A stretch of DNA of 42,571 bases from the NCBI GenBank assembly GCA_045837725.1, contig JBEWZL010000257.1, positions 310,001-352,571 on the forward strand, in the 5' to 3' direction. Each line of letters starts with the position of its first letter. Position 1 is the stretch's first letter. Under the pieces are notes generated by a model. It did no database searches and had not been told where the DNA came from. It saw only the letters and a program-made list of their open reading frames with translations. Both the position numbers and the translations under genes were made by a program. Shown here piece by piece: positions 6,875-42,571 of this stretch. Source of the DNA: Vermamoeba vermiformis. Lineage: Eukaryota.

Positions 6875-7183
6875 TCGTTTTCTTTTTGTTGCTTAGCACT
6901 CTCCTTTAGTGGTGTTTTCGATAATTTTTTTCTTCTATTTATTGCTGGTTGCGTAAAATATTATTGTGCAGATAAATGCCTAGAAGGTTCTTTGCTCAAT
7001 TCGTTGAATTGTCACTTAACTTTAAGACCTTACGACCAGCTGGCCGTACATATTGCCCTCTCTTAATATGTCGTGCAATGTGGGTTTATCCCGACAACTG
7101 TTTCTAACGGTTACAAGGAGTAAACTTCCAGCCGTTTTCCGCTGAGTATTTATTTTCATTCTGACAACGAAAGCAACATTAAT

Positions 7184-8662
7184 ATGACGTATTTGGCTTG
7201 GCGTAAGTCATTTTTGATATTTTTGGCATTCCTAGCGACAGTAACTGCGGATGCCTGCCCTACGAACGACGGATCTTGGTCCGAGATAGGTGCGGTTGAA
7301 AATCCTACCGGAACAATTACCTTCGACGACTTGGGCTTTAGTGCCTCTTTAGGCTGGAATTCTGCCGGTGGAAATCCACTTGTAGCGTACCAGGCAGGAG
7401 GCAGGACCGCTTCGATCTCCAGCGCAGGAATGGTCTACAGTGGGTTAAGCGTGACCACAAATAAAAATAAATGGGATGGACAACAAAATTGGTTCGATGG
7501 CGGAGGTATGCCTGGCTATTATTGGGTGATCTTCGACTCCGCTCAAAATTACGGTGAGCTGGTCTTCGACGTTCCCGTGGCAATGGTTAGCGCTAGAAAT
7601 ATGGGGGATGCTAATACATTTGCAACTACTCGTATGGAGGCTTTTGACGAGCAAGACAATTTAATCGGATGCGTTACAAATATTGGTGAAAATAGCGGAA
7701 CGAACGTTTTTATGTATCGTGGCATTAGTACAAGCTCTCCAATTAAGAAAGTTAGATTTTATGCTTCACAATTGCTTGACGACATTTTATTTGGTAGTAA
7801 TGTGCAATTTAAATATTTTATTTTGCTTACAAGTTATTTGTTCAGCGGATGTTGCATGCAACGTCGACTCTTGCTACAATAATTCATGGTGCTTTAATGA
7901 TTCTCCGAATAACGGCTCTGTCTCTTGTGTTTGCAAGAATGGTTACGAATTTGACGGATTTACTTGTGTTGGTAAGTTCAACAAGCACTGCATGAAGAAT
8001 AATAGAATACTGATAATTAATGTCCTTAATATTAGACCTAAACGAATGCAAGTTAAATCCTTGTCCACCCAACGCATTCTGCACCAATCTTGAATACGCG
8101 TACGGCTCATTCAACTGCACGTGCAATGAGGGCTTCACCGGCGATGGTAACACTTGCACTGGTACGTCAGCTATGCTTGTCATACGATATCGTAGTTGTG
8201 CTAAACCTTCTCACTACGGTCAGACATCAACGAGTGCGACAACAATCCGTGCAGTCCACTCGCGAACTGCACCAACACTCCTGGGTCGTTCAACTGCACG
8301 TGCACTGATGGCTACGAAGGTGACGGCCTCACATGCACAGGTAACGTGTCGCTGACTTGACACCAAGCACCACCGTATCGCTGACACAACACTTTGCTCT
8401 CGCAGACAAGAATGAATGTGCCACCAATCCGTGCGATGTGAATGCGAGCTGCACCAACACTGAAGGCTCGTTCACGTGTGCGTGCAATGACGGCTACACT
8501 GGTGATGGCAACACGTGCACTAAGATCGAGGCACCAACTGCTCCAGTGGCAGCTCCTACACGGACACCTATTGGAAGCAAAGTATCCTCAGCGTCGTGTA
8601 TTAACATCGCGATGATGTTTGGAACTATAGCGATACTCATTAATACGGCCCTGTTCATCTGA
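7184..8662 (+). CDS. Secreted/GPI-type surface protein: unknown N-terminal beta-rich domain plus four EGF/EGF-Ca repeats
   Basis: Signal peptide; DxNEC...C.N..GS..C.C..G..GDG..C repeats each on its own exon; Pro/Thr linker and hydrophobic C-terminal tail. Confidence 0.85.
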
Positions 8663-11758: not shown

Positions 11759-12554
11759 TTGAACGACTAGATGTGGTATATATATATGCGCCCGTGTGCT
11801 AGTTAAACCTCACATGATTCTTCGTGACAAAAGTCGACAGCAGACGCACGTGCACAAAATATACCGCGCAAGGCTGATTGAATTATTCTGTGGCATTAAA
11901 TTAATTGTTAGCACGGCTAATTAAATATTAATACTATTAACTACGTGATTGAAGATCAAGTTACAAAACAGAAAAATTATCTTATAGTGCATGAATACGT
12001 TGCGTATTGATATTAAATACGAAAAGGTAATTAATATTAATCACACTAGTATTATTATTCTAACTCCGTACCGGATTCAGTGCGTGCAAGAGCGGCTTTG
12101 GTGCGAAGTGTTGGCTTCATAAACAAATATTTGACTTGCGCAATCCATGGTACATTCAATAGGCCTCAGCTAGCACGTAAGTTGATACTAATTATTGGCA
12201 GATATTTAAAAGTAAAAGCCGCCAGAATTTGGATTTAGCTAAAAAGATATTATTAGTATTTTAAATTAGGCAAAAATTAATTAAAATTAACTACCAGAGT
12301 ATATACTATTAATGGTACTATAGTCCTTAATTTTTCACTTGGGAAGGTTCATCTGGTCCAGCGGACAGACCTAATTTGCGCCGGGAACGTAGTCCTGCCT
12401 CGTTGACAGGACGAATATGGTACCTGATAGGAATAGCTAGCTAAAGACTCACATATCTGGCCTGTATCTCGCAAGCATGAGAAGTAAGGATTGAAAATTT
12501 AATTTTTTATAATTTTTTTTTAACCGTTAACACAAGCACAGTTAATTTTCAAAC

Positions 12555-14014
12555 ATGGCTAATTTGGTTATGAATATTACGCTAATATTCTCGTTGGCTT
12601 TGCTAGTCTCAACAGTCACCGCTGCATGCAAACCAAACGATGATTCTTGGATTTTGATGGATGCACCCGTTGGTGGCACGCCAACAGGCTCCTTTGATTT
12701 CGATAATTTAGGATTCTCCATTAGAACCCCTTGGTCTTATTTTGACTCTCCTCTCGCCGTTTACAACGACGGCGCCGGCCAAGTTGCGTATATAGGTGGA
12801 GCTACTGGTAACTTGTACAACTACATCTTTCAAGCGTCTGGCGGTAGCACGTGGGACGGAGGAGCAGTATGGGACGGATTTGGCGACAAGCCTGGCTATT
12901 ATTGGCTGACGAATGATCCGGACAATACTTGCTATTTGAGCTTTGTAAATCCCGTTGCAATAGTTACATTGCGAGCCCAAGGCGATGCAAATGCTGCCAG
13001 CATTAACACTATTGAAGCGTATGATGTTAATGACACTTTAATTGCATGCTATAGCGACATCAACGAAAGAGGCGGAACGAATCGTTATTTTGATCTCGGA
13101 TTTCGGACCAGCATTCCTATGAAAAAGCTGGTATTTAAGGGCATTATATCTATGGATAACTTTCAGTTTTGTACGTTAATAGCTCACTTTTTTAGACCCA
13201 TATTATTAATCTGTGCTTCTTTAAAGCCGATCCGTTGTGCCAGCCTGACTCGTGCGACACTAACGCCTGGTGCTTCAACAACCTTGCTAACAGCGGAGTC
13301 ATGTGTTCGTGCAAGACCGGCTATAGTGGCGAAGGATCTGTGGGCACCTGCACTGGTAAGTTTTCAATGGAGATAAAAGTGGTGATAGTTGTTAAAATAT
13401 CAATGCGGTGCAGACAAGAACGAGTGCGACCTCTCGGTTTGTGCTGCCCACGCGACCTGCACGAACTTGCCAGGCACATATAACTGTACGTGCAATGAAG
13501 GCTACGAAGGTGACGGCTTCACCAACTGCACTGGTACGTTACAGACACCACTGAACGAGCATTGTTTGACACTGCACCTCTTAGACATCAACGAGTGCGA
13601 CATAGGGCTGTGCAGTCCGAATGCAGTGTGCGTCAACTACGAGCCCGGCTTCAACTGCACGTGCAATGATGGCTACGAAGGTGACGGCCTCACATGCACA
13701 GGTAACGTGTCGCTGACTTGACACCAAGCACCACCGCATCGCTGACACAACACTTTGCTCTCGCAGACAAGAATGAATGTGCCACCAATCCGTGCGATGT
13801 GAATGCGAGCTGCACCAACACTGAAGGCTCGTTCACGTGTGCGTGCAATGACGGCTACACTGGTGATGGCAACACGTGCACTAAGATCGAGACACCAACT
13901 GCTCCAACAGCGGCTCCTACATCTAGCCCCAAGGGCAAGGTTTCATCAGCTGACCGACCCTCTTCGCTCTGTGAAATAGCGTTGTCGGTGGTCGCAGTTA
14001 TCTTAATGTTATAA
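12555..14014 (+). CDS. Secreted/GPI-type EGF-repeat surface protein, paralogue of 7184-8662
   Basis: Homologous N-domain (PTGSFDFDNLGFS, PGYYW, GDANA, GTN), four EGF exons, hydrophobic tail. Confidence 0.85.
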
Positions 14015-29057: not shown

Positions 29058-31268
29058 ATGGATTTGAATAATTTGACGCCAGAACAACAACAGCAAGTTG
29101 TTCTGCTCTTGCAACAAATCCAAGGACAAGCTTCCAATACTAACGCAGCCGAAAATTTAGCCTCGGCTATGCAGGTATTGTTTATAGAGACGTAATATCA
29201 TAATATTACAATTCTCTAATGGGATTTATTGAATTAGCAACAAGCATCCACGACGCTCGTTGAAAACATTAAAATCTTAGCAGTGCTCAAACTGCTGAGT
29301 GCGCGCGTGCAACAACAACCGAGTCACGTCGCGCAAGACCAACCATTTGTCGAGGGATCACAAGGATTTGGTTCTAATAACAACGCAGCGCCTGTTGGTG
29401 ACTCGTCGGTGTTGCTGCAGCAGATCTTGGAGCTGAAACAGCAAATGATCAACAGTACGCATCGGTCCATTAATACAACACTCTAAATATGGCTCTCGTT
29501 GACATTTTATTCTTGCTTCAGATCCAAACGACGAAGGTTTTGGATTGCAAGGACAGCCCCCGCCACAGCACGACGAGCACGAGTACTATCCAAACAACAA
29601 CAGGCACGATAACGGCAATTATCGGCGCGAACACAATAGTCCGCCACGGTGGCACAGGGACAGTAGGGGAGACAGGGATCGCGAGTACAGTAGGGACCAC
29701 AGTCCACCACGTCGTGAACGAAGTCCTCCGCACCATGGCTCGGCATCGGGTCGCCAAAGACCGCCCAAATGGGTGCGCGAACAACAGAAATCAGCGCCAG
29801 CAGCTGGCACGATACCGACACAGCCACCGCCCATTGGTCAAGGTGCTGTCTTCACAGCGCAAAACCCAACGGATATTTTGGCCTCGTATTTGACTGACGA
29901 GGACGTGGTCATTCCAAAGTTCAGTTTGATGCAGCCTGTGATCACTGGCACTAGCAATAGCAATAATAACACCACGCCTAAACGTGCGAGACCAGTTCCA
30001 GCACAAGACACGCCGCCACAGGCAGTCAATCCACCACCCATCAACAGACCTAAGTCAGATCTGCCTAAGAGCGATGTGTTGGTAACACCAGCACCGAATC
30101 CGAGTCCAGTTAAAGTGACCAATGGCCCACCGCCAATGCCTGGCACAGTACCGCCAAAACTTGCTCCTAAGAAAATGCCGTCATCGCCAGTCAAAGGCCC
30201 AGTACCACTCAGCAGTAGCGGCAAATTGCCACCGCCTGCACGGAAAGGCCCGCCATTGAACTCACCTGGCGCGCAAAAGCCAGCCAAAGTGTCGCTCGAG
30301 GGCGTTCCACCGCCTTATCCGCCTCCAAAATTCCCCCCAAACAACCACTGCACACCACTCCGACACATTTGAATCCTTCTCATTCACAGCCACAACCAAT
30401 GCCACCCAAACAATACGCCCCTAAAGTCGGTTCAAATCCACCGCCACGAACGACATTCCCGCCAAAACAACCCCATTCGTACCCGCAGTCCAAACCTTAC
30501 CAGCCACCCTCACACGCACCAAAGCAATCGCACCATGTACAGCACCCACCTTACGCACAGCCCCAACATTACCAGCCACCAATCCAACATCCACCCACAC
30601 AGCCTGCAGCTCAGCCTTATTATCAACATCCACCGCCACAAGTCCCTAATGCAGCACCAACTATTAGCCCCGCTGCAAATGGCCAGGGTCGCGATCTGTT
30701 TCAAGAAGCGACAGTTGAGGACTTGCAACAAGTGCACCAGTTCTTGACTGAGGTGCTGGAAATTCAACAAGAGGCTGCCAAGGACAAGTCGCGTGCAGCC
30801 GTTCAACGCGCGCCCACTCAGCCTGGCAAGCCCGCGCAACAAGTGGGACCTGCACTGCCACCGCAGGCCAGCAGTTACGCGCCTCCGCAAGTCAAACAAC
30901 CACCGCTGCTCACTAAACGACCCGCGCCGAGTGTTGAAACACCAGTCGCGTTCAAGAAGCACAAGACCGATCATTATCCACCCACTGCTGCTCCCAAACA
31001 CGCTGCAGCTGCTTACCCGCCCAAGGCACAGCCAATGCCCGTCGCGCCCGTGGCCCCACAAGCAGTGCCACCACAGCCCATGCCATACCCCGCAGCGTAC
31101 CCTGCAGGTTATCAATATCCGTATCCGTACCCTGCTTACGATTACAGCGCCTATCAGTACTACTACGGCGCTGCTTATCCACCGCCAGGAGTTGCCCCGA
31201 CAGCAGCGGCGAGTTATCCGCCACCGGGGTATTATCCTGCCGTACCGCCTGGCTACCCGAAGAAATAA
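29058..31268 (+). CDS. Pro/Gln-rich low-complexity protein with Arg/Asp-rich segment and YP-rich tail; one apparent frameshift at ~30333-30338
   Basis: ATG 29058, two introns, ORFs 29545-30372 and 30369-31268 with continuous composition. Confidence 0.7.
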
Positions 31269-31354
31269 CTGTAAATAAACACCTGTTAATTGAAAAGGTT
31301 TTTTATTCGCGTACAAAATACAAGTGAAATAAGTTACAGTAGTGAGAATTAGTG

Positions 31355-33612
31355 TTAAATTCTGATTTGAGGAATCAACGAGCCAATGTCATCGATGTCG
31401 TCCAAATTAGGCATGTCAGGATTGGGCACATTGTCCTCTTGACCAAAATTGTACAACTTGACGGGCTCTGGCGCTGGTTGCACGGGTTGAGGTTGCGGCT
31501 GTGGTTGTTGGGGTTGTTGTTGCACGGGCATGTATTGCTGCTGTTGCGTGGGTGTTGAAGGGGCCATGGTTTGAATGGGCTGGGGTTGTGGCGGGATGAT
31601 TTGTTGCGGCGGTGTTGCGAGCACTGTTGGCTGCTTTGGTGTGCCGTACGGTGAGCCGTTGGGGACGCCTGATGAATAAGGAGAGTGGTTGTACTGTTGC
31701 GAGGTATAAGGTGAGCCGTTGTTGGGCACACCTGATGCATAGGGCGAGTAGTTGTTGGACATGGTGTTGCGCTGCGAGTTGTTGATGTTGCCGGTGAATC
31801 CCTGCATCACCACTGTGTCGCTCGTGTCGCGGAATCGTTTCACTTGAATGTTCTCGCCAAATGCGCGTTGAATGAGTGCAACAACGCCGTCAAATATCGC
31901 GTCCATGTCGTTTTTAATGTCCACAACGTCTGACACGTACGCGTCATCTCCTGCAAACATTTTGGCATTTTTGCCACTCTCGCGCATTTGATCTGCGAGA
32001 CTAGGCATTTCACGCGCCCTATAAACGCATTAGTTACTTGAAATAACAAAGTCGTTTGAGTGTTTGTCCGGCACGTACTTGGCAATGACAGCGCTGGCCA
32101 GCTGCGAGTCACTGATCATCGAAGCAACATTGGCGCACGTGCTCACGAATTCTTCAGCGGCTTTACCAACCTTCTTGCCGAGCTCAACACGAGTGTCGAC
32201 ATCAGGGGCTTCTAAAAAGCGACCGACCTGCAGTGACACGTGTCAAACTCTGTCAACGATAAAAACCATTCTTGTGCACGTACCTCCAGGACTACTGATT
32301 CAATCGCGTTTGAAATTTCTTTAGTTTGTTTTGGCGTCTCAAGATGTATCAGCTTGTCAATTTCATCGAGTGCGATTTTGATTGTCTGATCCAGCGCCGC
32401 TTCGTTGGCAGTACCTAATCAACAATATTGGGATTAATACAACACTAGTATAATTGAAGTTATTACCTTTTCCGAATGTAGCTAGCTTTCCCACGGACTC
32501 GCGCAAACTCGAGACTCCTTTTTTGAGCTCGTCTTGGATGCTTTTGTCGAATGCGTTCTGCGCAGCCACGAGGCAATCTCCGGCCAATCTCACGCCCAAA
32601 GCACCGGCAGTGTTGTTCTCACTCGCAATCTGAACGCGAGATTAGTATACCATATTTGGTAATTGTACCGTACTGTCGCAAAGTGCTGTACTGACCTCAT
32701 TAATTAAATCTTTTTTAGCCTTTTCCGCGAGTGATTTAGTGATAGCCGTGACTTTAATAACGTTCTGCAATATTTTCTTGGTAATTGTCACCACGTCGTG
32801 TCTGTAGCCGTCGACTGCGGAATATTTGCCGCTAAAATTAAAAATTAAAATCGTTGCAGCGTGTTTTGTACTAACAGAGTATATTTGATGAATACAAACG
32901 ATTGAATAATTAATCATGACTAAGCACTTACCGTCCTTCCCATTTATCGCGAGATTTGTGCAGCTCGCTCAAACTTTCAATTGCTCGCATCCACTCTTTC
33001 ATATCTCGTTCATCTTCGGAATAAATAAGGTACGTGCGTTCAGATGTTACCACTTGAAAGCAATTTTTTTTCTGAATAACGGTTGATTAATTTCAAATTA
33101 AAATCGAATTTTCTTTTACTCGATCTGAGGCAATTTCTGCCGTCACGACTAGAACTATTATGATTCATTTAAATGTCGACAATATTAAAATTAATAAATA
33201 TGATTACCTTGACTTCTGGACCGGCTTTTTCGACGGCATTAATTTTGCTGAACAAGATGCAGCCCTTGGAAACCATGTCCTTGCGAGTTGCGAAGTAGTA
33301 CATTAAGTTATCTTGCAATATAAACCACCTATCATAATAACGTCAATAAATAAATATAACTTGCTAGCGCTATTTTAATTGATCCAGATGAAATTTTAAA
33401 TTGGGAATGCGAATGTAATGCAATTAATCGTACAAAAAATCGATGCATAATTTGTACACGCATATTTTGATGTCGATAGATTTAACTAACGCGTGGTATA
33501 AAAATTGTTAATGACGCGCAGATGTGGTTGACACTTACCTCTTTTTCCAGGTCTTATTTCGGCCCCCGACCTTAGTGAGGTAGCCCTCTTTAATCATACC
33601 GAACGAGCTCAT
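31355..33612 (-). CDS. PH-domain protein with helical-bundle (talin/vinculin-like) middle and Pro/Gln-rich tail
   Basis: [31 protein letters not shown] PH start; Ala-rich amphipathic helices downstream. Confidence 0.8.
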
Positions 33613-34326: not shown

Positions 34327-34957
34327 CTACGCAGATTTGCCCTTGAAAGTGCGCTTGGTGTCGTGTATTAAATAAGAGAACATAATAATCGTCACTGCAA
34401 AGCACACAGCGGCAAAAAACACCTGCGCGATCCACACGGGCACTTGACTGGCGACGAGTGCGACGACAATCACGAGCAGAATGAAGTTGACGATGTGGCT
34501 GAGGAGTGATAAGCCCGCGCCTAGTGTACGTATTAATATAATAACGTATGAGTATTGGGTACTTGTTTAAAGTGAATTGTTTTGAAAAGAACATCGTTGT
34601 GAAATTTTGGAATCAATGTGACATATTTTTAATTGTTGATCCGTCAAATCTTGCTGTTTCACAATATTTCGTTATGTTATATAATACGAAAATATAAGCG
34701 TTTTTTTGCATTTGATTGGAATTGGTCGGATCTGCAATTAATTAAAAGTTGCGATACCTACCGATGATGCCAATGACTAATACAGGCTTGTTTAATATAG
34801 CTCCACCAACTACGCCAAATATGCTCACTATGATTTGAAATGCGCTGACTGCAATGCCGACTGGATTATAAGCCACGCAATCCAAGATGAGTGCCACGAT
34901 CGAGAAGACTAGCGACGCGATTGATACGACGAATAGTGCTTTGGCTTTAACAGTCAT
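34327..34957 (-). CDS. Small four-TM membrane protein, 2 exons
   Basis: Two TM helices per exon, phase-1 intron, stop at 34327-34329. Confidence 0.7.
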
Positions 34958-35204
34958 TGTATGGTGCTAGCTGTGTCTGTGGTGTTGTGGTGATTATATT
35001 CGTCAAATCACGAAGTCTCAAGTGTGCGCGTAAGTGATTTTTTGACTTTTCTGCGTTGTCTTCGCGTCGGAAGTGCGTATTAAAGTAGTTCCTAGGAACT
35101 TACCGTTTGATTCGACGCACGACATTCCGCTTCCGTTGTGCATTGTTATTTGAACATAAAACAACTGTCAACTTGACACGATCAAATAGATATTGAAATC
35201 GAAG

Positions 35205-35775
35205 ATGAAGACATTAATTCAGTTGCTTATCTTGGCTATAGTAGTGTCTGTTTACGCGTAAGTTCGTTCTGTTCTTCGTTCGATTGAAATCGCATCTCAT
35301 ACTTTCCTAATCTAGACAAGACAATTCAACAATTATTGAAACGCAAACTGGCTTTGTACGAGGATATATTCAAGGTGAAGTTCGCAATTTTTATGGTAAG
35401 CCTATTCTAAACATGGCTACAAAATTTAAAAATTTTAACCTCATCCGTGAAAAGGAATTCCTTACGCCAAGCCACCCGTAGGCGTTCTTCGCTTCAAGCC
35501 CCCTCAAAGGCCCGACAATTGGACAGGAATTTTTGAGGCAAATACACCGGTAAAAATCCACTCATTCCGTGATCTTGGATTTGCGTTAATTAATGTTCTT
35601 TTAGGGCTTCTCGTGCATGCAGGACAAAACAACATTGGGCCTTAGCGTTAATGTGAGCGAGGATTGTTTGTACCTCAACGTACACACGCCACGAAATGCC
35701 TCATCTGATTCAAATTTGTCGGTAATGTTTTGGATCTACGGTGGAAGTCTCAAATCCGGCTGGGGAGACCTCTTT
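35205..35775 (+). pseudogene. Type-B carboxylesterase, 5' portion only, truncated by insertion
   Basis: Signal peptide, [39 protein letters not shown]; homology stops at GWGDLF before the catalytic GxSxG and no continuation is visible in the window. Confidence 0.85.
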
Positions 35776-35837
35776 TTAGGGTTAGGGAAAACGGAGAGAT
35801 CTGGCGGTAAGTAGATCTCGTTTGAATAGGGTTAGGG
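35776..35837 (+). repeat. Telomere-type repeats TTAGGGTTAGGG (35776-35787) and TAGGGTTAGGG (35827-35837)
   Basis: Directly visible at the esterase breakpoint. Confidence 0.75.
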
Positions 35838-36433
35838 ATAATATAATCCCTTAGGTACGTCATGGATCTGGTGCGGAGCGAACGCGGCGGCAGCCGCGTG
35901 AGCGACATATAATTAAACGCACCCAGATTACTGATATTTCTTTTAAATTTTAGGTAAAACGGCCATTATAACCGCGATAATAGGCCCGCAATGCTTGAAA
36001 TTCCTCTCGTCTCAGGAATTTCAATTTGAGCACGCGATCCCGACTGGCGATTTATTTTGCTTGTATCGCCGAGATTAACACAACGGCACGTAAGTAATGT
36101 ATATTTATTTAATGTTAAACTCACTGTTATTAATGATTTTATTAGGAAAACGCGTTGAAGCAAGCCACGAATCCGTCTCAGGATTTACTCGATAAAGTAT
36201 ACTCAACTCCGTAAACGCGAAACAAGGTAAGCAATCGTTTTAATAAATAATAATCAAGTAATACATTCTATTATTTTGATTAATCAGACTAGTAAACTTT
36301 GTTTCGAGTCAGATTTAATTACGATCTGACTCAAAATCAACTCGTTTCTTAATTTTAATTAGAAATTCCATATCCTTCTAATTTTGTCAGCTTATTATTA
36401 ATGTTTACAGTTTATTCATGTTAAATTCGACAG

Positions 36434-37161
36434 ATGAGTAAAGCAGTCACCCCCGCGAAGCCCAAAAAGCCGGTAGCAACTGAGAATGTTACTACGTAAG
36501 TAATATTAACTTATCGAATACACTCGTTCTTATATTTTATCTTAGTAGTGTCACAGAACGGCCATTTGGTTGCCAGCAGTGCGTGCGTTGTTTTCCAACC
36601 AACGCGAAGTTAAATGCTCATGTCAAAGACTGCCACCCTGCCAACCCTGACGACCTACAGTGCAAACATTGCAATGGTATCTTTGCGTCAGTCCGATCCA
36701 AGAATGACCACACTCAGCGCTGTCCGCAGTTGAAAAAGCAAGTGTGGGTGCCAACAGCGACTATAAACAGCACGAAAGTAAACCACCGACATGCGCGTGA
36801 TGAGAACTCATTGTCAGTGGCTGGAATAAAGATAGTGGACCTATTTCGTGAATATCTGCAAGCTGGCAGCTCTTCAACATTCATGCTAGGCCGAGGCAAA
36901 AAGAATTTAGAAGGTGCGAGTGTTAGCACTTACGCGTATCATCTCCGTGACTACTTGCACTTTCTTGAAGTAAGTCCTTGTCATTGAATGTATTAATTGT
37001 TTATTCTAACAATAATATAGCAATCTGAAACAGAAGAGTTTGACTACATATTGTACTTTCTCAACCCGGTGACTATTATATATATACTTAGGCTTAGGCA
37101 ATTTAAGGGTTATAAGCCTAATCCAGAACTTTTGTACAAAACCCATACAACAGTAAAATAA
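36434..37161 (+). CDS. Zinc-finger (C2H2 + C2HC) protein with phage-integrase N-terminal SAM-like segment; probably a truncated tyrosine recombinase
   Basis: Exons 36434-36495, 36546-36969, 37021-37161; RPFGCQQC...LNAHVKDCH, CKHC...DHTQRC; LFREYL...KNLEGASVSTYAYHLRDYLHFLE resembles integrase core-binding helices; no catalytic R-H-R-Y domain seen. Confidence 0.6.
37078..37121. repeat. Palindromic site A: TA run + TTAGGCTTA-N16-TAAGCCTAA
   Basis: 9-bp perfect inverted arms; directly repeated at 41543-41586. Confidence 0.8.
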
Positions 37162-37454
37162 ATATATATAAAACTCCAGATTGTTTATTCAAAATTTTAC
37201 AGTGCATGCTCAATTGAGTAAATTATTCATCACTGGCCTATGGGGGCCATAGTGATACAACCATGAACAAACTTGATACAAGGACAATCCATAGCATATT
37301 TGCCTGCAAGAACACCTTTACTGAATGATTGAATGAAGTAACCTGTGAAATCATCATACTCTCAATTTGAATATTTACATAGGAAAATTGAATGTACATA
37401 ACTAGACTTTGTATATTCAAAAAAGCTTCACTTACATTTTGCAGTCTGGGCAGA

Positions 37455-38013
37455 CCGTAGTCCTTGGACTACGCTCAAATGGAGAATTCTTGGCTATCTC
37501 GTTCCCAGGAAACACCTGGATTGAAGAATTCTCAGTAGACCGTAGTCCTTGGACTACGCTCAAGTCCAGAATTCATGGGTGAGTGTTTAGCTGGAAACAC
37601 AGTGCCTAAATTCCTAGGTGACCGTAGTCCTTGGACTACGCTCAAATGAAGAATTACGGGTCTTTGGTTTACTTGTAACTCTTTTGTTTTGTAAACAAAG
37701 ATAAAATATCCAATACTGCAATGACATCTCCCTACACCTTTATGTCAATCAAAAAATTAGTTAATGTATATACATACATTAATTTTGTATATACAAAAGA
37801 TGGGTGCTTACATTTCATAGTCCGTAGTCCTTGGACTACGCTCAAATGGAGAATTCTTGGCTAACTCGTTCCCAGGAAACACCTGGATTGCAGAATTCTC
37901 AGTAGACCGTAGTCCTTGGACTACGCTCAAGTCCAGAATTCCTGAGTGAGCGTTTCCCAGGAAACACTAGTTTCAGAATTCCTGGCAGACCGTAGTCCTT
38001 GGACTACGCTCGA
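37455..38013. repeat. Array of six CCGTAGTCCTTGGACTACGCTC hairpin repeats (starts 37455, 37540, 37622, 37822, 37907, 37990)
   Basis: Core CGTAGTCC-TT-GGACTACG invariant; 82-85 bp spacing in two triads; a seventh copy at 41868. Confidence 0.95.
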
Positions 38014-38384
38014 ATGAAGAATTCCCAATACTTCTACCAACAATAAGATCACCATAGCTAAAGACGTTGCCCATCCAGTCCATCAGCCCAAGAAGTTCCA
38101 GCAGCTGCTCTTGGCATTAATAAAGCAATTATAAGTTATTAAAAAATAGATAATAATAAGTAATTTGCATTGTTAACTTCGATATTAAATTGGGAATAGA
38201 AATTTTGTAAATATTTAATAATGAATATACAAAATTGTTTAATGTATAAACATAATACTCGCCGTACCCTGTACTTCACAAAACTCATTAATATTGATTG
38301 AGATATGCATTGTAGAGATGGTTGCCATATTGGCTATGAAATAACAATGAAAACAAAAAAATTCTTTTTGGGTTGTGAACCAAG

Positions 38385-40005
38385 TCACGTGCTGCCGAAC
38401 CATTTCCACACAACATGTCAGCTGTTCCCAGCCAAACATCTAGCAACGAAGGCACACATCACAGGTGCTATTATTCATATATGAAGTAGAGTCATGAGAC
38501 CTCTCAGTAATGAGAGTTCGCACACCATCTCGATCTGCCCGCTTGATCAAGAATACATCAGCCCTGTTGTATGGCCCTTTGCAGAGCACTGAAGGTAAGT
38601 TTACGTATGTATGTATAAATATACTGTTGAATTTCTTATGGTATCATTAGGAGTTAGCTCTCTAGTTATTTTATTTTTTATAATTTCAGATCTAGCCGTT
38701 ACAAAATATTTATTTCACTTATATTCAAAATTCTAAATAACAGTGTCATATTCTTACACAAAATAATTCAAGTAACGCAGTAGTATATTTGATTTATTTT
38801 TACTAACATTAGTATCAGAGATTTCATTGATCCAGTGACACGTGCACATCCGCTGCCGATCAGGTGGAGACTTCCCTGGATAGTGGTAAGCTAACTGATT
38901 GCAATTATACAGAGTATGTATTGATGTTACACGTACTAGGTGCTTTGGAGATGCTGTAAATTGCAGGTAAAGCCAGGCTTGCTGCTGACGTACTCTTGCC
39001 GATCTTGTTGAAGATCTGATCTGACTGTTGCCAGCCACTTGTAAGTATTCTGTAATAATACTTTGTATTTATTAACTAATGTCTCTCATTAGGAGTATGG
39101 TCAGGATGGAATTGAGCATTAGTTGGCCGTCAGTATGGCTCCACGATGAAATGTATATACAAAAAATAAAAATGAATATACACAAATCTAATTATCAAAA
39201 AAATTGCGGCAGGCACGTGGTGCCGAACAATTTATGTGTAACCAGGTGTCTGTATTTCATCAAACATTCACCAACTACAGCACACATCAGGTGTGCTTCT
39301 ATTAATATCAGAAAGAGGGTCACCAGTGCCCTCAGTAACAAGACTTGGTGTGTCGGCTCGATCACGGGTCCGATCTAGAATAATCAGTCCTCTTGTATGG
39401 CTTGCACCAGCTCATTAAAGGTAATTTAAATAATAATAATAATAATAATAATAACGTCGTAAGGCTGGTGACCTTGTGAGTTCCCAATTTTGATTTCATT
39501 TTAATTTACACGGGATCTAGCCGTTACAAAATATTTATTTTCAGAATATTCAAGTTTTTGCATTACAATGATAGATTGTTATATAAAATAATTCAAATAA
39601 TGCAGTAGTATATTTGGTTTATTTTTACTAACATTAGTATCAGAGATTTCATCGATCCAGTTACACGTGCACATCCGCTGCCGATCAGGTGGAGACTTCC
39701 CTGGATAGTGGTAAGTTAAGTGATTGCGATAATAGAGAATACCTATTAATATTGCACTCTACAGGTGCTTGAGAGAGGCTTACAAGTGCTAGTTGTGCCA
39801 GGATCGCATGCTTGCGATCAAGATCGGATCAAGAAGAGAATCAAACTGACCAAAGCTGACAAGTTGTGAGTATTATTTAGTAATAATTAGCATGTTTGAC
39901 GTAATGCCTCTTGATAGCATGTTGGGTGAAACAAGTTGTGAGCTTAGCGTGCAAATGCGAATAGAATGTATATACAAAAAATAAATATGAATATACATTA
40001 ATCTG
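38385..40005. repeat. Tandem duplication of an ~825-bp module (38385-39210 / 39213-40005)
   Basis: Colinear similarity from cacgtgStgccgaac onward, with a near-identical block at 38777-38890 / 39602-39715. Confidence 0.9.
39429..39452 (+). repeat. (AAT)8 microsatellite
   Basis: Directly visible. Confidence 0.9.
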
Positions 40006-40009
40006 GTTT

Positions 40010-40899
40010 TTATTCTTCCTTGGGAAAGCAGAATCTATCAGAGCAAAAGACAATAGATTGTCTATCTTCAGAGGCTGGTAAGTTCTCGTGTAACATCTTC
40101 TGAGACTGGAAGAAGATTACATCTCCAGCTTCAAATTGTACACGGTAACCAAGGTCTCTGAAGACAAGATCACCTCCCGTAAAGTTGCCAAAGGGAACGA
40201 CGCAACACAGACCATCGGGTCTATCCATGTGGTCGTAGTGGGGGCCTGTAGTTCCCCAGTTAACGACACACATCAGAAAGGATTTTCCAACCAGTCTTGG
40301 GCCAGGAGTTTCTACCTTTATATTTTTGTATATACATTATTAAAATATGTATATTCATTTTCACTTCGCTTACCTCCCGATATTCCTTGCACAGGTTCTT
40401 ATCCACTTGTGAAAATAGGGTGTCAATCATGCCAAAGAACTGTTGGTTGAGCTTGTTGCGAAGGAAGATCCCATTATGCAACCAGCAGCTGATGTTGGCG
40501 TCCGCAGATCTGAACATAAACCGGCGAAACCTTCTCCAATAACCGAGGTGATAGCTTTTTGATTTTTTAATTTGAGGTTTGAATGCTGCCTTGAGAGCTC
40601 TGGACGACTTGACCAAGTTGTTTAAATATTTTTTCGGGATCTTATTTTTGTAAAATCGTAGGATGACTTTTCCATTGCTATCCCGCAATATCCAGCTAGG
40701 TATTTGATTGTTAAAAGAGAAAATATTTTTGATTTTTTTTAAATGCTTACTCAGTGGTGATTAGCTTCAGTTTTTGCACAAGCGGATCGTCGTCAGTCAG
40801 GCATTTAATAGTCTCTGGAATTTTTCTCCTAGCAGGAAGCTTTCGTCTAAGAATCCTTCTTGCCCTAATTCTTCTTCCAAATAACCTTTTAAACGACAT
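40010..40899 (-). CDS. TET/JBP-family 2OG-Fe(II) dioxygenase, 258 aa, 3 exons (40751-40899, 40374-40695, 40010-40315)
   Basis: In-phase splicing gives an intact ORF with basic NLS-like N-terminus, YHLGYW, PHYDHMD (HxD), CCVVPFGNFTGGDLVF, GDVIFFQS..LHEN (distal H), RQSIVF (2OG-binding R). Confidence 0.85.
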
Positions 40900-41542
40900 C
40901 AGTGTTGCTTGGACATTGGCCACAAAAAATGTATATTCAAATTTTTATTATGTTTATACTGAATTCACCGTCAAGGCAGGAAAAAATGCGCAGCGGAAGG
41001 GTCAAAAACAGTGGTGTGGGGCTTCACCTGCACCTACCAGAGTCATTTTTGCATCGAAAATGGTAAAGTTGATACCAGATCCGCTACTTTTTTTCCGAAG
41101 TTTATGATCACGTGACTTTTCGTTAACCGACTTTTCCTAATCGGGCATAGAAATTATTTTTGCAATGTCAAGTTTTATTTTGATAGCTCAAAAGAATAAT
41201 AAAACATACTTCATCCCTGGCAAGTACAAAGTTTCTAGTTCGGTTGCTTTCGTACTTCTATGCAACAAACTGCAGGCCAGGCAACGACACGCAGAATTGT
41301 ATATACAAAGTATGAATATATATATACAAAAAAATAGACCAATCAAATACAAGGATTCTTCTGACCAATAGGATGCCAGCGCGCCTTTTTGTGCCACATG
41401 TTCTTTTGAATCCTCTTTCTTGTTTGTTCTGATATCAATCTAGCTTGCAACGCACCACATAGGTAATGGTATGTTCATTTTTACATAATGTAAATTCATA
41501 TATACTACAGGGCTTGGCCAAACAGGGCTAGCCCTAAAAATT

Positions 41543-41586
41543 ATATATATAGTTAGGCTTAGCTAATTTAAGGCTTATAGGCCTAA
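41543..41586. repeat. Palindromic site B, direct repeat of 37078-37121
   Basis: TATATATAGTTAGGCTTAGCTAATTTAAGGCTTATAGGCCTAA, 5 mismatches to site A over 43 nt. Confidence 0.8.
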
Positions 41587-42068
41587 AGCCTGGAAAATGT
41601 CATATTTTTGAATAAAACCCCATGATTCGAATAAACGTTATTTATTTTTGAATATACAATTATGGCTAAAATCTGTACAATCTTCATTTTCCCAATTTTG
41701 AATCACAAACAGTGTTTTCCCATCCATTAGCCTTGGCAGGCTTACAATGAAGATTGAGCCTAAAGGTAAGGAACTTAGTTTCATCGGGTAACTATTTTGA
41801 ATATGCATACTTGCAAAATGTCTATTCATTTGCATGGATGTCCAACCGGTGCAGAATTCTCCATCAACCGTAGTCCTTGGACTACACTCAAACACAGAAT
41901 TCATATATGTAAGTGGGCTTGCCCATATAGGGCTAGCCCTGACACCCCCTCAAAAAAATAAAGAATTTTCGACCCCGATCATTTTTTACTTAAGCAAAAT
42001 TTTACTTTGGAAAATTATCCACGGGAAAAAAGAAGTCTCACCCCGAATGACATGCTCAAAAACACTAA

Positions 42069-42410
42069 GTCCTGCAGGTCGTCTCCACGTGGAGACGATC
42101 TCATAAAAAAACAAAGTCTCGCAGGTCGTCTCCACGTGGAGACGATCCTAAAAAAACAAAGTCCTACAGGTCGTCTCCACGCGGAGACAATCCTAAAAAA
42201 ACAAAGTCTTGCAGGTCGTCTCCACGCGGAGACAATCCTAAAAAACTACGAAGTCTCGCAGGTCGTCTCCACGTGGAGACGATCCTAAAAAAACTACGAT
42301 GTCCTACAGGTCGTCTCCGCGTGGAGACGATCCTAAAAAATAAAGTCTCGCAGGTCGTCTCCACGTGGAGACGATCTACAAAATAAGAATGTCTCGCTGG
42401 TCGTCTCCGT
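42069..42410. repeat. Tandem array, 7.5 units of ~44-48 bp built on the palindrome TCGTCTCCACGTGGAGACGA with A-rich linkers
   Basis: Directly visible; variants carry CACGCG or CGCGTG centres. Confidence 0.95.
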
Positions 42411-42571
42411 GTACAAACATTTCTCTTGGTCATGTCAGCACGGAGATGGTTAAAACTGAAATCGTTGAGGTCCACTCCGCGGCGAAGACGAATCCGTTAA
42501 CTAAATAAAAAAAGGTAAAAATAACAAGACTGCCAATACAAACTGGAGGGTCTCACTATTATACATAAAAA

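Follow-up and report, generated by a model that had tools for sequence, protein, structure and literature searches.

Organization of the locus

The window analysed here is a stretch of 42,571 nucleotides (nt) from Vermamoeba vermiformis (contig JBEWZL010000257.1, positions 310,001 to 352,571, forward strand). Its left 35.7 kb are ordinary, gene-dense DNA, and the sequence character shifts from position 35774 onward, directly behind the point where a gene for a secreted carboxylesterase is broken. The break is followed by the head of a mobile element, which contains telomere-like repeats, and by the first part of a gene for a zinc-finger protein that probably belongs to the tyrosine recombinases; further to the right lie hairpin arrays, a duplicated module and a TET/JBP-like dioxygenase gene. 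An original prediction made from the sequence had listed these features (esterase break, first gene, hairpins, module and TET/JBP gene), and all of them are present. The window is eukaryotic DNA, and its introns are uniform (GTAAG..AG, 50-59 nt). None of the right-hand repeats (85-nt hairpin arrays, 45-nt array, a repeat here called R30 and TGTATATACA boxes) occurs in the first 35.7 kb, and blastn of the right part against these 35.7 kb found no similarity. Four public runs were mapped on positions 34500-42571: a DNA run (X1), which is the probable source of the assembly itself, two runs that gave RNA contigs (X4 and X8, both carrying organism labels other than that of the window) and a run with RNA-supported reads (X21). 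The coordinates of all features are collected in Table 1.

The broken carboxylesterase gene and its intact allele

The esterase gene is cut at 35773/35774, with ~26% of the protein present. The Pfam family COesterase matches positions 35617-35775 with an E value of 3.3e-12, over profile positions 79-119 of 515, and only residues 1-134 of the related protein P0166 (510 amino acids, aa) align to the window, position 35773 corresponding to residue ~131-134. The region of the COesterase domain with the catalytic serine (GESAG) is not found in the window gene; in P0166 it lies beyond the aligned part. Since the profile stops at 119 of 515 and GESAG lies further on, the window holds a broken allele of a true member of the esterase family. 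The esterase homology ends at 35773, positions 35774-35775 are TT, and TTAGGGTTAGGG occupies 35776-35787.

RNA contigs from X4 and X8 match the spliced esterase gene at ~99%, with the introns at ~35258-35315, ~35395-35453 and ~35549-35603 removed, and extend 255 nt past 35773 in sequence that is still esterase. X8 shows 1 difference over 170 nt of the last esterase exon. The continuation behind the break in these contigs reads DL/YNGTWLVNAG (the stroke marking the break), and the related proteins P0166 and P0167 have GWGDLYNGS at the same point. The X1 DNA contig covering 35001-35773 has its left edge just after a heterozygous single-nucleotide polymorphism (SNP) at 35000 and its right edge exactly at the break; in the 31-mer graph an end exactly at the break means that a second continuation is present in the reads, and the two edges together speak for the presence of both alleles in this run. 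The SNPs of the minor allele (157.5 of 471 depth) are carried by X4. The break at 35773/35774 is real and polymorphic; the same DNA sample probably holds an intact allele as well, and other samples express it. The remaining part of the esterase is not met again in the 6.8 kb to the right of the break.

Head of the element

The first 17 nt of the head, TTAGGGTTAGGGAAAAC (35776-35792), hold about two telomere repeats and are identical at 17/17 positions to the head of a second copy of the element at a locus termed L001 (see below). With at most one mismatch the 12-mer TTAGGGTTAGGG was found twice in the 42.6 kb (at 35776 and 35826) versus 0.03 matches expected, a count that was reached by 0/100 shuffles. 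RNA contigs start aligning at ~35950, after a GC-rich palindrome with a TATA-like block (35880-35925) that is a probable promoter. It is followed by a perfect inverted repeat of 11-nt arms around an 8-nt spacer, an architecture like that of lox and FRT, which makes a candidate for a recombinase site or a hairpin of the 5' untranslated region (5'UTR). Compared with L001, identity is 93.5% in the GC/TATA block and 89.3% at 35985-36040 and only 76% in coding exon 2; because they are better conserved than the coding exon, both blocks are regarded as putative functional cis elements. Spliced 5'UTR exons lie between the 11-8-11 repeat and the coding start at 36434. At 36182 a loose end in X21 (5 reads) marks an RNA-supported junction to another head in a paralog. 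The pattern YCGTCTCMR, which was picked after the data were seen, has 15 matches in the window versus 1.57 expected; two lie in the inverted repeats of the 5'UTR, both of which are present in L001, and 13 in the distal 45-nt array.

The first gene and its protein family

The first gene has GT..AG introns of 50 and 51 nt, and its second exon encodes 141 aa with two C2H2 fingers (Pfam). A search with the exon-2 protein against 1.84 billion representatives (E<=0.001) yielded 897 proteins, most of which were generic zinc-finger proteins matching residues 4-57 only; the whole of exon 2 was spanned by 15 of the best 150 of the 897 matches. Behind the fingers, Phage_int_SAM_1 (PF02899) was found in 7 of 10 relatives scanned and in 4 of the 6 members of an alignment termed A2. 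The relatives thus contain an N-terminal SAM-like core-binding domain, and the window exon aligns up to its start. In full-length relatives (P0023, P0151, P0152 and P0153) this part is followed by a conserved domain with the motifs RPTMRSQN, KYKT, IRKIMES and MLHD..RRYY and by a C-terminal RanBP2 finger. The AlphaFold (AF2) model of P0153 has a mean predicted local distance difference test value (pLDDT) of 59.5, with values mostly of 64-92 over residues 1-226; compared with the PDB by Foldseek, its best match was XerH (E 6.8e-4), followed by Cre, XerA, integrases, Flp and topoisomerase IB. The assignment of the first gene to a recombinase family in the original prediction is supported, and the family is probably one of tyrosine recombinases.

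The copy in the window is a dead stump of 1.3 kb, cut at 37075 and lacking the catalytic domain; tblastn with 15 relatives against the whole window found nothing of that domain. The element also has expressed paralogs: RNA reads from paralogs of 90-95% identity are spliced at the same exon. The depth of X1 is 1100-1460 over the bins of 35580-36389 versus 382 over the esterase, i.e. ~3-4x, with the first of these bins including 194 nt of single-copy esterase; over the finger exon the depth is ~2x that of the esterase. The element is multicopy and mobile.

A second copy at another broken gene

A scan of metagenomes gave one locus, L001 (2953 nt), out of 198 pattern matches. Its first 1066 nt belong to a CobW/COG0523 gene whose truncation falls at position 80 of the 94 in the CobW_C profile; they are followed by GTTAGGGTTAGGGAAAAC and then by the same element, with 69.9% identity over 1303 nt and introns at the same positions. 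By blastn, L001 1074-2343 pairs with window 35827-37078; the window diverges at 37075-37078, and L001 extends past the SAM-like domain as far as the first catalytic motif, close to the end of its contig. As the same head and gene adjoin a different broken host gene in an unrelated contig, the original prediction was right in placing a boundary at about 35776, and this boundary is a recurrent one; the recombinase gene also recurs where it had been proposed to lie, at the 5' end of a mobile unit. No locus was found in viral contigs for TET exon 3, alignment A2 or a 40-nt promoter block, nor in genome contigs for the recombinase protein or a 35-nt block.

At 2915-2953 of L001 the recombinase frame is lost ~40 nt before the end of the contig, where GGCCGTTAGGCCGAGGGC appears; the L001 copy may be truncated as well. 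The 7-mer ACAATGG stands directly after the break in the intact esterase, and the same 7-mer stands directly before the head in the L001 host gene. With two loci this could be chance, or the 7-mer could be a core at which cleavage is preferred and takes place on one side in the esterase and on the other in L001.

Downstream repeats and the TET/JBP gene

The remainder of the recombinase gene is replaced at 37075 by the first of two copies of R30, a repeat of 360-430 nt; copy 1 is collinear with 41540-41903, and a DNA contig diverges inside it at 37119. The depth over 41520-41789, in copy 2, is 11268 (~30x). Across the whole downstream part the depth relative to the esterase ranges from ~1x (TET/JBP contig) to ~30x, unique contigs having a depth of 312-386. 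Past 37075, repeats that are unrelated to one another thus form a mosaic, in which the TET/JBP gene is single-copy. A six-frame Pfam scan of 37000-42571, with stops read as X, yielded Tet_JBP only, and no transposase (KDZ, Plavaka or other), reverse transcriptase or viral gene; the original prediction had suggested a search for KDZ and viral genes downstream, and none is found in this part of the window. An Rfam scan over 35000-42571 gave nothing better than E 0.63.

Table 1. Position and character of the features at and downstream of the esterase break (window coordinates)
Feature	Position	Strand	Remarks
Secreted carboxylesterase, 5' quarter	35206..35773	+	Signal peptide, four exons, cut mid-exon at 35773
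Head block B1	35774..35827	+	TT + TTAGGGTTAGGGAAAAC + short GAGATCT/AGATCTC hairpin; second or partial head
Head block B2	35828..35879	+	Begins AGGGTTAGGGATAAT; collinear with L001 head (alignment; blastn)
GC-rich palindrome + TATA-like block	35880..35925	+	93.5% identity to L001
11-8-11 perfect inverted repeat	35995..36024	+	CTCGTCTC; fold z -4.5
Shorter inverted repeat	36171..36187	+	AATCC GTCTCA GGATT, CGTCTCAGG core; kept in L001
C2H2-C2H2-SAM-like-tyrosine-recombinase stump (probable family)	36434..37074	+	Exons 36434-36495, 36546-36969, 37021-37074
R30 copy 1	37075..37435	+	Begins ATTATATATATAC TTAGGCTTAGGC; takes the place of the remaining recombinase gene
Tandem units (2), ~367 nt each	37389..38025	+	Per unit one paired-box motif, three 85-nt subrepeats, 7-bp hairpin
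TGTATATACA-like paired palindromic boxes, nine sites	37389..41658	.	10 matches versus 0.21 expected
Duplicated module, two units of 815-930 nt	38220..39966	+	GTAAG..AG intron-like signals on + strand
TET/JBP-like 2OG-Fe(II) dioxygenase, 258 aa	40010..40899	-	Apparently intact; exons 40899-40751, 40695-40374, 40315-40010
R30 copy 2	41493..41940	+	Flanked by 43-nt direct repeats; highest-copy segment
45-nt tandem array, 7.6 units	42058..42408	+	20-nt palindrome TCGTCTCCACGTGGAGACGA per unit; window ends 163 nt on

The start of R30 (37088-37099 and 41553-41562) shows a double hexamer of TTAGGC type in the same orientation as the TTAGGG head, which hints at a telomere-like start in a second repeat family; TTAGGCTTAGGC at 37088 is not significant when taken alone, as 11 of 100 shuffles give one match. 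Two arrays have an 85-nt period, and the hairpin core CCGTAGTCCTTGGACTACG occurs in 7 copies versus 0 expected. The small hairpins fold weakly (z -1.6 to -2.0), and the unit of the 45-nt array has a fold z of -4.5. The hairpin repeats are not shown to belong to the recombinase element. The two copies of the duplicated module share 82% identity (38689-38982 and 39514-39807); the module looks non-coding, with no clean open reading frame (ORF) in any frame and no family match. For module 1, X1 also holds a diverged second version at 38325-38822, which differs at 44 positions and by 5 gaps over 499 nt and has a depth of 353; it comes from the other haplotype or from a paralogous copy. Regarding the TGTATATACA boxes, 6 of the pairs are spaced by exactly 21 nt and the other 3 have a degenerate second box. 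The pairs flank the tandem units, each of the two modules and the TET gene; at the latter, one makes up nearly all of intron 2 (40316-40373), one lies 30-60 nt before the ATG and one stands just past the stop. Possible roles are those of binding sites or of promoter or terminator elements, and the boxes may also be very small foldback insertions.

The TET/JBP gene model comprises 258 codons closed by a single stop, and its two GT..AG introns measure 55 and 58 nt. Exon 3 matches Tet_JBP with an E value of 1.4e-6 and 28.1 bits, under the Pfam cut-off of 34.9. The motif HYD...H lines up with HKD...H of the Naegleria Tet structure, at an E value of 0.27 only, and the nearest Atlas clusters carry Tet_JBP (score 0.96) and are commonest in Basidiomycota. 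Exon 2 and the N-terminal exon gave no family match, and no relatives were found among longer proteins. The depth of the TET contig (39693-41007) is 385.7 versus 382.4 for the esterase, i.e. ~single-copy. In one RNA run, of which 46% was read, no reads fell on the TET gene, and the esterase was almost silent there too. The gene is tied to the recombinase stump by proximity alone; it is a resident of repeat-rich DNA and not a demonstrated cargo.

Origin of the junction

The reading that we favour, giving it somewhat better than an even chance, is that a break in the esterase gene is joined to the head of a multicopy recombinase element, of which the window holds a stump, with a mosaic downstream and the TET/JBP gene as a resident. 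Four junctions show a common order of distally cut upstream unit, telomere-like tract of 10-14 nt and head, namely esterase/B1, B1/B2, the junction of position 36182 to a head in a paralog (from RNA) and CobW/head in L001. Read 5'-3', the G-rich TTAGGG strand points away from the host gene, which is the orientation of a healed chromosome end, and GG or AGG microhomology is found at two junctions. Regarding the mechanism, a tentative proposal, put a little short of an even chance, is that a truncated haplotype was capped by telomere-repeat-directed recombinase elements together with other end-type repeats. This haplotype would have lost the distal esterase and would be capped by a stack of chromosome-end or subtelomere type, in which each unit would be truncated distally and followed by a short telomere-like tract and then a fresh head. 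Such a stack may be the work of an element with a recombinase directed at telomere repeats, in the manner of the telomere-specific nimaviral recombinases of like architecture, or it may have been copied from another chromosome end. The data show the break, its intact allele, the recurrent head, the architecture of the gene, its truncation and the mosaic of copy numbers; telomere targeting, end capping and recombinase activity are points that we infer. A clearly smaller share of our confidence goes to an internal insertion or to nested ones, in which case the esterase would continue past the end of the contig.

Several observations weigh against the favoured reading or the capping proposal. Only ~1.7-2.3 telomere repeats are found per junction, and with a near-fixed repeat number a built-in terminal sequence fits as well as a telomere remnant. 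The window contains no long terminal TTAGGG array and the contig just stops, so a chromosome end is not shown. The 3' end of the element lies in neither the window nor L001, and the latter is the sole independent extra locus found. X1 may be the assembly's own data and is therefore not independent support; among the contigs listed for it, none runs across 35773/35774, and the depth of the unique downstream contigs permits no assignment to one haplotype. Regarding the enzyme, the usual histidine of the HxxR motif seems to be replaced in the relatives. Phage_integrase, DUF3435 and DUF3504 gave no sequence match in the 10 relatives or in the 6 members of A2 (E up to 10), a PHROGs scan of the family returned no integrase family, and the family profile compared with PDB sequences matched zinc-finger and RanBP entries only. 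The catalytic-domain matches of the P0153 model, with its mean pLDDT of 59.5, have TM-scores of only 0.20-0.38. Low TM-scores and the lack of a sequence-level integrase match leave the recombinase assignment probable, not proven.

An ordinary internal locus is rather unlikely. It would have arisen by a Crypton-like insertion into the esterase exon, with later nested insertions and satellite expansion and a TET gene from the host or from another, unseen transposon. The near-fixed head AGGGTTAGGGAWAA at the four junctions is as would be seen for a transposon terminus, the microhomology at two of them fits recombination at pseudo-sites, and the element gene retains its introns, which makes a DNA route likely. 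However, self-insertion would be needed for two of the four junctions, the truncation affects the distal side of every upstream unit, the orientation of the telomere strand would be a coincidence, and the esterase does not resume in the 6.8 kb available.

It is improbable, at a level below that of the internal locus, that the structure is a DNA-level chromosome-end element, i.e. a C2H2-SAM-like tyrosine-recombinase transposon of a microbial eukaryote with a telomere-repeat head that integrates at, or is joined to, telomere seeds on broken chromosomes and forms a serial cap. In this reading the 11-8-11 site and the CGTCTC-cored array would be its recombination sites and the cap would be the recombinase equivalent of Terminons or HeT-A; in the boldest version the paired TGTATATACA boxes would be the cassette boundaries of an integron-like platform.

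Slightly lower still stands the composite cargo transposon of the original prediction, which would modify its own DNA and run from 35776 past 42571 with the recombinase at its 5' end, TET/JBP as cargo and the esterase resuming beyond the contig. The head and recombinase gene do lie at the 5' edge and recur so in L001, the YCGTCTCMR core shared by the 5'UTR sites and the distal array (13 times) hints, as a post hoc pattern, at related ends, and the depth of the unique downstream contigs is compatible with the broken haplotype. Against this, the recombinase gene is cut at 37075 by an unrelated ~30x repeat and does not resume in 5.5 kb, and no right end, target-site duplication or second TET-bearing copy is seen. 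The depth varies ~30-fold, with the TET contig ~single-copy, and the homology to L001 stops at 37078; this depth mosaic, the end of the L001 homology and the lack of any domain but Tet_JBP indicate that the region is not one element, and the prediction of a single cargo-carrying unit is unsupported. The TET-carrying transposons so far described use DDE or Helitron enzymes, and a survey of them mentions neither Cryptons nor tyrosine recombinases (0 mentions; PMC12730594).

A stack of Terminon- or Athena-like retroelements is very unlikely. The minus strand would then be the sense strand, with reverse-complement telomere repeats at the 3' end that anneal to broken or telomeric G-rich ends; the copies would be 5'-truncated and carry a telomere-repeat cap, and host genes would be trapped among them. 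Penelope-like elements keep introns. The minus-strand unit ends ...GTTTTCCCTAACCCTAA beside host DNA, and far-side truncation with short telomere-like tracts is a pattern found in the available text on Terminons (PMC6431247). Neither a reverse transcriptase nor another domain of reverse-transcribing elements was found, however, in six frames of 37000-42571 or in the five ORF stretches of L001 that were scanned; no hammerhead ribozyme was seen (best Rfam match E 0.63), and the recombinase gene with its promoter would sit antisense at the extreme 3' end. A chimeric join at 35773/35774 is barely credible: no bridging contig is among those listed and the DNA past the break is repetitive, but the tract is 12 nt long, so that any 31-mer across it holds unique sequence of both sides, which excludes repeat collapse, L001 shows the same junction type at another gene in an independent contig, and the DNA contig stops at the very position at which the RNA departs from it.

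Comparison with known systems

To our knowledge, tyrosine-recombinase mobile DNA is seldom documented in eukaryotes. By analogy, the recombinase element of the window would work like a Crypton or an element with a nimaviral-type recombinase. Endogenous nimaviruses have a telomere-repeat-specific family of recombinases with C2H2 fingers and an N-terminal SAM-like domain that directs integration into telomere repeats, according to the part of the report available (PMC10871703). The same part describes a matching architecture of C2H2, SAM-like and tyrosine-recombinase domains, only part of the canonical catalytic residues, the host telomere motif at the element boundary and introns in some of the genes (PMC10871703), all of which have parallels here. 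The nimaviruses described there are viral genomes of 278-401 kb in crustacean hosts with long (TAACC)n tracts on both flanks (PMC10871703). Unlike these, the present element shows two TTAGGG units on one side (~2 telomere repeats on the 5' flank in both the window and L001) and lies in a different host, and no viral genes were seen in it.

Like Cryptons, as far as they are covered in the available part of PMC3212892, the element consists mainly of an intron-bearing recombinase gene, lacks a reverse transcriptase, shows no terminal inverted repeats and is of low copy number. C2H2 fingers, a C-terminal RanBP2 finger and telomere-repeat termini are not described for Cryptons in that part (PMC3212892), and DUF3504 was not matched here. 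Terminons and Athena elements are alike in having short telomere tracts between serially truncated units and broken or captured host genes alongside, in the sections of PMC6431247 available; unlike them, the present element has no reverse transcriptase or hammerhead match, and its gene points away from the junction. The fungal TET/JBP transposons (KDZ, Plavaka, hAT, Harbinger, EnSpm, Helitron and others), as the available text of PMC12730594 presents them, likewise have a TET/JBP gene in repeat-rich DNA. Unlike these, the gene in the window has no transposase beside it, is of ~single-copy depth and has no terminal inverted repeats or target-site duplication identified. Starships and Enterprise elements are alike in a recombinase-type gene at the 5' edge that reads inward, but differ in having DUF3435, in their termini and in that cargo is not demonstrated here. 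The parallel that the original prediction drew to Starship captains is not borne out: no DUF3435, Phage_integrase or DUF3504 was found in the relatives. On its sequence the element does not appear to be a Starship, and nothing marks it as a TET transposon of KDZ/Plavaka type or as Penelope-like.

A literature search on tyrosine recombinases and telomere repeats turned up no TTAGGG-headed element that is small and cellular; the telomere-repeat-directed recombinases found in print were those of giant endogenous viruses of crustaceans only, as far as the available part of PMC10871703 goes. What is described here is a small cellular element with a nimaviral-like protein architecture and a telomere-repeat head, situated on broken genes in two genomes. 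If the favoured reading and the capping proposal are true, the telomere-repeat strategy would extend to a different setting, and a tractable system would be at hand, with a polymorphic break, a living intact allele and expressed paralogs, in which it could be asked how recombinases choose telomere repeats and whether they help to heal chromosome breaks. That the TET/JBP gene lies close to the stump of the recombinase does not count as evidence that it is cargo.

Other features of the window

In the left part of the window, two paralogous, secreted-looking ORFs (7124-7882 and 12546-13376; 252 and 276 aa) match no Pfam family. Behind one of the pair, a cysteine-rich stretch in a different frame looks EGF-like by eye. 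Positions 29500-32000 are coding on both strands, with Pro/Gln-rich low complexity, a GC content of <=0.56 and a GC skew of -0.33.

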